Shown here: positions 2,005 to 4,753 of the stretch, in pieces
Numbering within the stretch: the first letter of the stretch is position 1
Layout: every line of letters begins with the position of its first letter
DNA from: Escherichia coli
Lineage (GTDB): Bacteria; Pseudomonadota; Gammaproteobacteria; Enterobacterales; Enterobacteriaceae
Assembly: GCF_003334765.1 (NCBI RefSeq)
Contig: NZ_QOWT01000001.1
Length of the DNA: 64,000 bases
Direction: 5' to 3' (one strand)
Position numbers and translations under genes: made by a program
Notes under the pieces: generated by a model
Databases searched by the model: none
The model's input: the letters and a program-made list of their open reading frames with translations, nothing else
Told to the model about the DNA's origin: nothing

Positions 2005-3507
2005 TTACGCTACGGCTGCTTTCGCCGCTTTGTCTGCAGCGTCATCCTGCGTCATGCGGTGCAGTTTCGGCGCGGTCAGCAGCATCAGTACTGCAATAAC
2101 GGCAGTAGCGACACCAATCTGCAAGAATACGCGACCATAGACTTCCAGTGACATCAGCGGATCGGTAACGTTATCCGGCACAGCCATCATACCCGCAACA
2201 TAACCACCAATCAGGTTTGCACCGGCAGTGGTCAGGAACCAGCTACCCATAATGAAGCCCATCAGACGCTGCGGAACGAGTTGAGCAACCATTGCCAGAC
2301 CCAGACCAGAGATCATCAGTTCCCCGATGCTCTGCAGGCCATAGCTTGCGACCAGCCAGCTTACAGACACGATACCAGCGTCAGACGCGAATTTCGCACC
2401 CAGCGGCAGAATCAGGAACGCACCAGAACACATCACCATGCCGATTGCAAACTTGGTTGGCATCGGCAGGGTATCGCCCATCTTGTTATAGATAGCGGCC
2501 AGAATCGGACTACCGATGATGATCCAGAACGGGTTCAGTGCCTGATACTGCTCAGGTTCTACGGCCAGACCCAGAATGGAGTGCTCAACGTTACGAATCG
2601 CAAAGAAGTTCAGTGACGTTGGCATCTGGCTGTACAGCACGAAGAAGATAATGGCTTCGAGCATCAGGATGAAGGCAACGATCATTTTACGACGCGCAGC
2701 ACCTTTCATCGCGAAGGCTTCTTTACCGAAGATAACCACGATACCGAAGGCAACAACGCCCAGCGCCATACGCGCAACTTCCTGATTGTGCAGCAGCCAG
2801 GTGGCGATAGCGATCAGTGCCACAACACCAATAATGGTCAGCAGCAGGTTACGGTAGTTGATAGGCTCGAAGTCTGGTTTTGAACCGTACTGTTTAACCC
2901 AGCGTTGGCAGAAGGCGAAGTTAACGATAGTGATCAGCAGGCCTACAACGCTCAACGCAAACGCAACACTCCAGCCGTATTTCGCGGCCAGCCACGGCGT
3001 AGCAATCATAGAGAAGAAAGAGCCGATGTTGACGGACATGTAGTACATGGTGAATGCACCGTCCAGACGCGGGTCGTTTTTCTCATAGCATGTAGAAAGC
3101 AGAGAAGACGGGTTAGCTTTAAACAGGCCGTTACCGACCGCAATAGCCGCCATACCCATATAAACGATACCGGCGTCGTGACCAGACCAGGCAACCAGAG
3201 CATAACCAATCGCCAGCACAATAGCGCCGAGCATAATTACGCGTTTAGTACCCAGTACCTTGTCACCTAACCAGCCGCCGATAGCGACCAGACCATAAAC
3301 CAGGGCACTAAAGGAAGAGAAAAGGGTGATTGAATCCGCTTCAGACATACCCAGTTGTTTAACCAGGTAAACAGCCATAATTCCTTGTAGGCCGTAATAA
3401 CCAAAACGTTCCCATAACTCAATCGAGAAGATGAGATAGAACGCCTTCGGTTGTTTGAAAGCGTTCAAACTGACGCTTTCAGTTGGTTTTTGGTTTGCAG
3501 TGGACAC
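2005..3507 (-). CDS. dtpA: proton-dependent di/tripeptide permease (POT family)
   Basis: 500 aa ORF with many TM segments, [43 protein letters not shown]... (POT family signature). Confidence 0.92.
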
Positions 3508-4117
3508 TTTTACCTCTTTTTTTACATCCCATATTAACGGGGGTGCTTTCTCGCGTTATGTATAAAAAACATACGCGCAATTGTTATAGTGGGAGGGGAA
3601 ACGGCAGGTAATGTTCACTATCTTGCACTTTCAGACAAGTCCTTTGTAATAATCTGTTACATATAACTGAGGCGGGGAATTCAACCATTCCGGGAAATGT
3701 TATCCAGCGTTAAATTTTTCAAAAAACGTAACGGCAGATTTTTTCACTGCACTGAGAGGGGGGTGATGGCTTAACGGCGATATGTTCTGCTATTTAGCGT
3801 TTTTACTAGTGAGATAGTCCAGTTTCTGAAAAATAGCCAGTGTAATGTTTTGTAGGTCAATATTTGTTGCGTGTGTAAATTTAAATGATTTTAACCTGAT
3901 TCTTGCAATGTTTTTACATTGCGACAGCATCGTGATCTTGATCACGAATGAATAGAAAATTTCGCTATTAAAAAAACAATTAACCTGCATTTTTGGTTAT
4001 CCGCAAACGGATTACCTGATGATAACGCTAAGCAATGGCATCATTGACGTTAAAAAGATGTTTTAAAAGAGGATAAAGAAAGGTTATCAATGGGGTAATC
4101 GGTGTTACCCCTTTTCT

Positions 4118-4753
4118 TCAGATGTCAACTTTCTCTTTGTATTCACAAAGATCTTCAATAATACAAGAGCCACAGCGGGGCTTGCGGGCAATGCAGGTAT
4201 AACGCCCGTGCAGGATCAACCAATGGTGGCAGTCGACTTTAAACTCTGCTGGAACCACTTTCAGTAGCTTTTCTTCTACCTGTTCGACGTTTTTCCCCGG
4301 CGCAAATTGAGTACGATTACAAACGCGGAAAATGTGCGTGTCGACAGCAATAGTCGGCCAGCCGAATGCAGTGTTTAATACGACGTTGGCTGTTTTACGA
4401 CCTACGCCGGGCAGGGCTTCAAGCGCAGCACGATCTTCCGGAACCTCGCCATTATGCTGCTCCAGCAAGATACGGCAGGTTTTGATGATATTTTCTGCTT
4501 TGCTGTTATAAAGCCCAATCGTTTTGATATAGGTTTTCACCCCTTCAACGCCCAGTTCAAGCATCGCTGCAGGCGTATTCGCCACCGGGTAGAGTTTCGC
4601 CGTCGCCTTATTAACACTGACATCGGTCGCCTGAGCGGAAAGCAGTACGGCAATCAGCAATTCAAAAGGCGAACTGAAATTAAGCTCGGTGGTGGGATGA
4701 GGATTGTTCTCACGCAGGCGAGTGAGGATCTCCAGGCGTTTTGCTTTATTCAT
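4118..4753 (-). CDS. nth: endonuclease III (DNA glycosylase/AP lyase)
   Basis: 211 aa; HhH-GPD motif LPGVGRKTANVVL and a C-terminal 4Fe-4S cysteine cluster CIARKPRCGSCIIEDLC; last gene of the rsx-nth cluster. Confidence 0.93.
   Translation of the reverse strand: MNKAKRLEILTRLRENNPHPTTELNFSSPFELLIAVLLSAQATDVSVNKATAKLYPVANTPAAMLELGVEGVKTYIKTIGLYNSKAENIIKTCRILLEQHNGEVPEDRAALEALPGVGRKTANVVLNTAFGWPTIAVDTHIFRVCNRTQFAPGKNVEQVEEKLLKVVPAEFKVDCHHWLILHGRYTCIARKPRCGSCIIEDLCEYKEKVDI

Follow-up and report, generated by a model that had tools for sequence, protein, structure and literature searches.

The nth-dtpA spacer of Escherichia coli as a probable extended dtpA control region with a distal CRP site and fixed block spacing

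A stretch of 64,000 nucleotides (nt) from Escherichia coli (contig NZ_QOWT01000001.1), hereafter the window, was analysed at the spacer between nth and dtpA. The two genes are co-directional, both on the minus strand, and the spacer (3508-4117, 610 base pairs (bp)) runs in gene direction from the nth stop (4118) to the dtpA start (3507). Window positions were converted to K-12 as 1716276 minus the window position; the K-12 spacer is likewise 610 bp (1712159-1712768) with no RefSeq annotation, and the segment 3400-4250 was matched at 95-100% identity in 5424 of 5426 complete genomes. The guanine-cytosine (GC) content was 30-42% in the spacer vs about 50-58% in both flanking genes, and the spacer measured 570-620 bp in most sampled genera, which bears out the remark in the initial annotation that it is unusually long and AT-rich. 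Comparison with 80 Enterobacteriaceae loci around dtpA showed that the spacer is probably, for the most part, an extended dtpA control region that contains a CRP site, with three functional zones and no hidden gene. The flanking genes and the elements of the control region are as follows, where M1 to M6 denote conserved blocks.

2005-3507, minus strand: dtpA coding sequence, GTG start at 3507
3603-3638, minus strand: dtpA core promoter, -35 TTGTCT (3638-3633), -10 AACATT (3615-3610), start 3603
3620-3679, minus strand: proximal OmpR-binding region, seen by chromatin immunoprecipitation with exonuclease treatment (ChIP-exo), with boxes GTAACA and TTACAA at 3665-3641
3717-3695, unstranded: M6, AAATTTAACGCTggATAACATTT, mean pairwise identity 0.87
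3748-3736, unstranded: M5, mean pairwise identity 0.72
3793-3776, unstranded: M4, AGCAGAACATATCGCC, mean pairwise identity 0.88
3853-3806, unstranded: M3, mean pairwise identity 0.71
3930-3947, unstranded: CRP-binding site (palindrome 2), centre 3938.5, at -335.5 from the dtpA start site
3952-3961, unstranded: M2a, plus strand ATAGAAAATT, recognised by conservation
3971-3987, unstranded: M1, in the sense direction CAGGTTAAT-yr-TTTTTT, at -384 to -368, the upstream edge of the rigid region
4118-4753, minus strand: nth coding sequence, stop codon 4118-4120

Results showed that insertions and deletions (indels) were almost absent, across more than 20 genera, from the roughly 385 bp that precede the dtpA start (3987-3604). 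Eight conserved modules had a mean pairwise identity of 0.66-0.88, while the spacers between the blocks had 0.39-0.49 (random expectation 0.26). Distances to the -10 anchor were constant to the base pair in most species. The OmpR box was 39 bp away in 80 of 80 species, M6 was 95 bp away in 78 of 80, and M4 was 169 bp away in all 73 species in which it was found (73/73). The two anchors of M3 were 195 and 214 bp away in 60 and 53 species, respectively, and M2a was 337 bp away in 61 species and 22 bp from the CRP centre in 58. M1, with 80-99% identity across 70 loci, lay 364 bp away in 59 species, and 364 or 365 bp away in 64 of 80. Variation in spacer length was limited to two places, the dtpA 5' untranslated region (UTR), which varied by up to 7 bp across species, and the stretch from the nth stop to M1, for which more than 30 distinct distances (89-160 bp) were recorded.

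The rigid region contained no conserved open reading frame (ORF), with 6-11 stops per frame per species and no period-3 signal. A small protein gene was considered for the 66-amino-acid sense ORF at 3990-3790, which starts at the M1 edge, and was rejected: its ATG was unconserved and stops occurred in every frame. No conserved RNA fold was found on either strand with RNAalifold on 51 ungapped sequences (-2 to -5 kcal/mol, with only the CRP palindrome picked), and this weak consensus fold energy rules out a structured RNA as the cause of the fixed length. With neither a conserved ORF nor an RNA fold, the constraint acts on the length or phase of the DNA. The M1 boundary persisted in Kosakonia, where the upstream neighbour is a different gene, and the rigid region thus belongs to dtpA.

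The promoter at the downstream end of this region has been characterised. The only start site mapped for b1634 (dtpA) by single-molecule real-time (SMRT)-Cappable-seq is 1712673, equal to window 3603; among start-site and 3'-end tables, that of Kim et al. 2012 has no dtpA entry. We infer the -35 and -10 hexamers from this start site and from an up-mutation, a recurrent A-to-T change at nth/dtpA (+503/-108), window 3615, which raised dtpA mRNA about 23-fold in long-term stationary-phase cultures and swept in 3 of 4 of them. The OmpR ChIP-exo peak P11 for dtpA (1710621-1710680 in U00096.2, window 3679-3620) was reported as activating, and its published centre at -46.5 agrees with the start at 3603. 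In published work, dtpA fusion activity was lost on deletion of ompR, and dtpA was activated at low and repressed at high OmpR, with no response to osmolarity. Published binding and expression, together with boxes of invariant position, identify this promoter (P1), with OmpR just upstream of its weak -35, as OmpR-activated. ChIP-exo peaks of GadX and YdcI have also been reported for dtpA. On the plus strand, opposite dtpA, an extended -10-like element TGtAATAAT lies within the OmpR boxes (3645-3653) and was kept in 94% of species. It may simply mirror the OmpR site, or it may drive divergent transcription towards nth, which would give a plus-strand terminator at 4092-4119 something to stop.

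The distal part of the region is marked by palindrome 2 (CGTGATC-TT-GATCACG), which is exact at 3931-3946 and part of a longer 8-2-8 repeat at 3930-3947. The sequence CGTGATCTTGATCACG, a perfect 8-2-8 palindrome, has 8 of the 10 half-site bases of TGTGA-N6-TCACA. Table 1 of a Footprint-seq preprint lists ttCGTGAtcaagaTCACGatg, with its centre at 1712342, a dissociation constant (Kd) of 2.1 nM in vitro and dtpA as the gene (PMC12871828), and genomic systematic evolution of ligands by exponential enrichment (SELEX) placed tppB (dtpA) among new CRP targets, also in vitro. Matches to TGTGA-N6-TCACA with 2 mismatches occurred at chance level in the window (28 vs 28 expected), and the significance of palindrome 2 therefore rests on its conservation and its published binding. 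Across the 80 loci, identity was 0.8-0.99 at the half-sites (GTGA, GATCAC) and 0.3-0.5 at the centre; constrained half-sites around a variable centre are, as a sequence pattern, the signature of CRP recognition. Other genera mostly carried TGTGATC..GATCAC with 0-1 mismatch and the better half-site TGTGA, and 59 of the 80 species had the CRP centre 315 bp (316 in Escherichia) away from the -10 anchor. Palindrome 2 is a high-affinity CRP site, with binding shown in vitro: sequence, in vitro binding and conservation all agree with this, and only its position departs from class I or class II. Class I/II geometry was rejected on either strand, where no conserved -10 element stood in register.

Two GATC (Dam methylation) sites lie 6 bp apart inside the CRP site (3934-3943), and both were kept in most genera. 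The CRP consensus was lost at the homologous position in Kluyvera (loci L021-L023, L027, L028 and L035; for example ACGCTGACGAAAACATC) and in Pseudocitrobacter (L032 and L036). These genera keep the spacing of the downstream blocks, so the architecture persists where the CRP site has been lost. In Kosakonia, what looked like a 139-bp insertion proved to be an artefact caused by a second CRP site, and the homologous site lay at the usual distance.

Next to the CRP site, the M2a 15-mer TAGAAAATTTCGCTA matched 14 of 15 Lrp consensus positions, and M2a gave the best column average for the Lrp consensus (12.5/15, z = 4.4). M2a is thus a candidate Lrp site, though a weak one; a literature search for a link between Lrp and dtpA returned nothing usable.

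The fixed distances between blocks are most simply read as a multi-protein complex in which distal sites are held in a fixed geometry to the promoter. The conserved blocks would then be protein-binding sites in one nucleoprotein complex critical in length or phase, either a DNA loop or a wrap, through which CRP at its distal site, perhaps joined by Lrp or by factors of the ArcA type, would modulate the OmpR-dependent dtpA promoter. In its full form, in which the 385-bp region is a single length-critical assembly, with CRP at 335 bp and factors on six more blocks reaching the OmpR-dependent sigma-70 promoter by looping or wrapping, this is put forward tentatively, as a possibility well short of an even chance.

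Several observations weigh against this account of the spacer. Measured from the mapped start, the CRP centre lies at -335.5, far from the canonical activating positions of -41.5, -61.5, -71.5 and so on, and the evidence for CRP binding (Footprint-seq and genomic SELEX) is all in vitro. A dtpA fusion from -201 to +15 was still under OmpR control; the distal blocks are therefore not needed for that control and must add something beyond basic OmpR activation. The OmpR ChIP-exo peak for dtpA is proximal only, and the consensus matches for Lrp, ArcA and OmpR were weak (z about 3-4). A weak candidate promoter on the plus strand, TAGAAA-16-AACAAT (3953-3980, predicted start about 3987), also falls on the conserved and spacing-fixed M1/M2.

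Alternatively, CRP could serve a second, distal sense-strand promoter of dtpA, with a -10 element TAAAAT at 3893-3888, a start near 3881 and a leader of about 375 nt that holds the other blocks. Genomic SELEX and Footprint-seq both assign the CRP site to dtpA, a leader RNA could account for the fixed spacing, and TAAAAT or the related TAAATT or TAAAGT was found in Escherichia, Citrobacter and Salmonella. This arrangement is nevertheless unlikely, since SMRT-Cappable-seq shows a single dtpA start (1712673), the -10 element was unconserved beyond the Escherichia/Citrobacter/Salmonella clade, and CRP, at about -57.5, would be out of register with the class I position by half a helical turn. The sense strand had no conserved RNA structure, and the blocks, as contiguous invariant runs, resemble DNA sites.

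The extended control region leaves the nth-proximal part of the spacer, palindrome 1 and the dtpA leader to be described, and their features are as follows.

3508-3602, minus strand: dtpA 5' UTR, 96 nt, with a covarying stem-loop at 3577-3552, an invariant small hairpin at about 3541-3527 and the ribosome-binding site AGAGG at 3517-3513
3905-3922, unstranded: palindrome 1, GCAATGT-TTTT-ACATTGC, an exact inverted repeat whose symmetry is specific to E. coli
3988-4091, unstranded: variable nth-proximal zone, poorly conserved with frequent indels, identity to E. coli mostly 0-50%
4092-4111, minus strand: stem-loop GGGGTAA-TCGGTG-TTACCCC, an exact 7-6-7 repeat, 6 nt past the nth stop
4112-4119, plus strand (antisense to nth): T-run TTTTCTTC, from the terminator scan, overlapping the nth stop by two bases

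All three inverted repeats named in the initial annotation (palindromes 1 and 2 and the hairpin at the nth stop) were exact. Perfect inverted repeats with 7-nt arms numbered 4, vs 0.68 +/- 1.0 in 2000 dinucleotide shuffles (P about 0.02), and two adjacent inverted repeats were present in 1.7% of shuffles. The terminator scan returned 5 terminator-like sites vs 1.0 expected, with the plus-strand hairpin at 4092-4111 among them.

The energy of this hairpin was unremarkable (-11.3 kcal/mol on the plus strand, z = -1.4; minus strand, z = -2.0). Of 81 sequences (the window and 80 species), 69 had a GC-rich hairpin that starts no more than 20 nt from the nth stop, with stems of unrelated sequence. 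In the Escherichia/Citrobacter alignment (A1), 82% of cells were paired and 4 of 7 pairs were changed on both sides, which beat all slid controls. Sense folds were slightly more stable than antisense folds (Wilcoxon p = 0.04) and contained 43 G-U pairs. The structure is conserved directly after the last gene of the operon, and on comparative sequence grounds the hairpin is best read as the 3' stem-loop of the rsxABCDGE-nth operon, a selected RNA structure. From its position and its conservation in structure only, it would end or stabilise the rsx-nth mRNA.

The initial annotation had seen in the hairpin and T-run a likeness to a plus-strand intrinsic terminator with no annotated plus-strand gene upstream. 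Such a pattern is indeed there, with TTTTCTTC after a stem of 7-8 pairs, no such gene was found, and no transcription unit with a 3' end in the three Term-seq data sets accompanies it. Only 6 of 69 sequences, three of them from Escherichia (the window, L005 and L006), had a plus-strand T-run of at least 5 T in 8, and E. albertii and most Citrobacter lacked it; the T-run arises because the A-rich TGA-AGAAAA precedes the stem in the sense reading. Its effect would at most be to halt stray antisense transcription. The sense tail ATTGATAA had 3 T in 8, short of the U-tract of a minus-strand terminator for nth, and a sense U-tract of at least 5 in 8 was likewise found in only 6 of 69 sequences; some Citrobacter carried a sense-side T-run (TTCTTACC or TTTTTTACC). 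It weighs against a terminator that most hairpins after nth have no U-tract on either strand, so that an intrinsic terminator is not established even in the sense direction. The other suggestion in the initial annotation, a bidirectional terminator of the rsx-nth operon, fits best as regards the operon end, given the hairpin in 69/81 sequences and its covariation, but not as regards bidirectionality: only one side carries a tract, and the genes run in the same direction, not convergently. At this site, as in Rho-independent and bidirectional terminators, a stop codon is followed directly by a GC-rich stem of 7 bp with a loop of 6 nt, and a T-run stands on one side. The dtpA-nth site differs from them in that its T-run is opposite to the only gene ending there, its genes are co-directional and no 3' end was found in the Term-seq tables.

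Across orthologous regions the dyad symmetry of palindrome 1 was unconserved, and only TGT (3918-3916) and TG (3907-3906), 11 bp apart, were kept. Other genera had at this position a direct repeat GATAAC-N4-TGTTA-N6-TGTTG, or different dyads. A dyad-symmetric repressor operator at palindrome 1 is therefore not supported, and its symmetry in E. coli looks incidental. The TGTTA-type repeats weakly resemble ArcA and OmpR direct repeats (z about 3-3.7), and an ArcA/OmpR-type factor is a weak candidate at this position. The suggestion that the palindromes could be operators of dtpA, for which conservation across Enterobacteriaceae was named as a check, was thus upheld in part. Palindrome 2 binds the activator CRP upstream of dtpA, with half-sites kept in about 59 of 80 species; it is not a classical operator and lies 335 bp from the mapped start. 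Palindrome 1 was not conserved as an inverted repeat.

A further reading is that the features are largely incidental, with palindrome 1 and the T-run arising by chance in AT-rich DNA, the CRP site being a non-regulatory decoy, and the spacing resulting from independent short-range sites. It draws on the lack of conservation of palindrome 1, the confinement of the T-run to few species, the chance frequency of CRP consensus matches in the window, the modest z-score of the hairpin, and the many in vitro CRP sites in the literature without known function. The CRP half-sites, however, are conserved in exactly the same place in about 59 species, and independent sites would allow indels in the 60-bp and 26-bp variable spacers, where essentially none were seen although the adjacent zone differs in length in nearly every genus; this reading is accordingly improbable.

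Very unlikely, finally, is a small plus-strand RNA of about 130-140 nt running from a CRP-linked promoter by palindrome 2 to the terminator at 4092-4119. Apart from the terminator pattern, it could draw on the candidate promoter at 3953-3980 and on an E. coli TATTAA at 3966-3971 that would put CRP near -40. That class II -10 element was unconserved, with AGAAAA there in other genera, and the conserved candidate promoter puts CRP at about -48.5, which is non-activating; the promoter scan gave no site with at least 9 of 12 consensus positions. No part of the spacer was less conserved or more variable in length than the would-be body (3990-4090), the T-run was absent in most species, and the predicted fold was ordinary (z = -1.6). 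No Rfam match was found at E <= 1 besides an 18-bit chance match, and the curated Term-seq tables of Adams 2021 (lysogeny broth (LB) at optical density (OD) 0.4, LB at OD 2.0, and M63) list no 3' end in K-12 1712xxx. With no Rfam family, no conserved body or fold and no such promoter, the locus does not qualify as a trans-acting small RNA gene, and the unannotated plus-strand transcript ending at about 4115 that the initial annotation had proposed is unsupported, which removes a false lead, though there is a small chance of a low-level or condition-specific RNA.

The dtpA leader carried a structure of its own. Its stem-loop (3552-3577, +27 to +52) was kept in 55 distinct Enterobacteriaceae UTRs, with a mean folding energy of -11.2 vs -5.7 for shuffled sequences and a mean z of -2.45 (z < -1.5 in 89% of the 55). 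The stem sequences differed widely (GCGCGUAUG/CAUAACGCG, GGUGGAUGC/GCACUCCGCC, UCACGG/CACGUGA). The stem-loop is flanked by a conserved C/A-rich stretch CCCACTATAACAAT (3590-3577) and by the second small hairpin just before the ribosome-binding site. It may relate to mRNA stability or to small-RNA control, for example by GcvB, which features in the literature on Salmonella tppB. Antisense to dtpA codons 9-18 (3455-3482, plus strand), a terminator-like hairpin was also noted, in which TTGGTTTTTG follows an 11-bp stem, and it scored in addition as a 2-mismatch CRP/FNR-like dyad TTTGAAAGCGTTCAAA.

In Kosakonia, Phytobacter and Enterobacter sp. Bisph1 (L057 1332-1823, L082 1436-1867 and 7 other loci), an extra gene lies between nth and the dtpA control region. 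It encodes a predicted membrane protein of 143-163 amino acids on the opposite strand and converges on nth, the two stops being separated by about 6 bp; a consensus CRP site of its own lies upstream of it. A remnant of this gene was not detectable in other genera, and a lost divergent gene was therefore rejected as the origin of the reverse terminator. In K. pneumoniae MGH78578, the ortholog table of Kim et al. 2012 lists nth as KPN_01970 and dtpA as KPN_01972 with no entry for KPN_01971, and this gap in the tags means that a gene was called inside the equivalent spacer. The call is probably spurious, as no ORF was conserved across genera.

Among known systems, ompF is the closest analogue by layout. 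Both have an OmpR-controlled promoter and, about 330-385 bp upstream of it across AT-rich DNA, a conserved module for protein binding, and dtpA is likewise activated at low and repressed at high OmpR. The distal OmpR site F4 of ompF lies at about -380 to -350, while the distal site of dtpA binds CRP in vitro, not OmpR; looping at dtpA is a proposal, and dtpA has no osmolarity response. A distal OmpR site of the F4 kind was considered for dtpA and rejected, as the consensus matches were weak and the OmpR ChIP-exo signal proximal. The pap, ilvIH and gltBDF regions are multi-site Lrp or CRP nucleoprotein regions with several hundred bp of phased sites, in which spacing matters. The dtpA region resembles them in its several hundred bp of fixed-position sites and in the Lrp-like 15-mer beside the CRP site; its putative Lrp site is a weak consensus match, and dtpA is not known to have phase variation or a GATC-based switch. 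Expression of Salmonella tppB was reportedly found to be leucine-dependent by Jamieson and Higgins in 1984. With the class I/II promoters lac and galP1, dtpA shares a near-consensus palindromic 22-bp CRP site of nanomolar affinity in front of a gene for the transport of an alternative nutrient. The dtpA site differs in lying at -335.5 from the sole mapped start, as against -41.5, -61.5 or up to -93, with no conserved -10 element in register.

The CRP site had been newly reported without an assigned role, and it is now placed in a conserved dtpA control region of fixed spacing, which makes its function directly testable. What is new is the base-pair-exact architecture of about 385 bp; its kind, a complex promoter controlled by several factors, is already known. 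That dtpA regulation is under selection is indicated by the sweeps of the up-mutation at 3615. The spacer (3508-4117) is also, as nth-ydgR, a widely used 'neutral' landing pad (Kuhlman and Cox 2010; the massively parallel reporter assay strains of Urtecho), and insertions there may, depending on position, cut off distal modules and alter dtpA regulation. Exact spacing over about 365 bp with diverged spacers amounts to a clean natural experiment and suggests long-range architecture, of a kind rarely documented for sigma-70 promoters. If the assembly is real, a spacer used as a 'neutral' integration site would hold an enhancer-like architecture that is base-pair-exact across Enterobacteriaceae, and through it peptide uptake would respond jointly to carbon, amino-acid and envelope signals.

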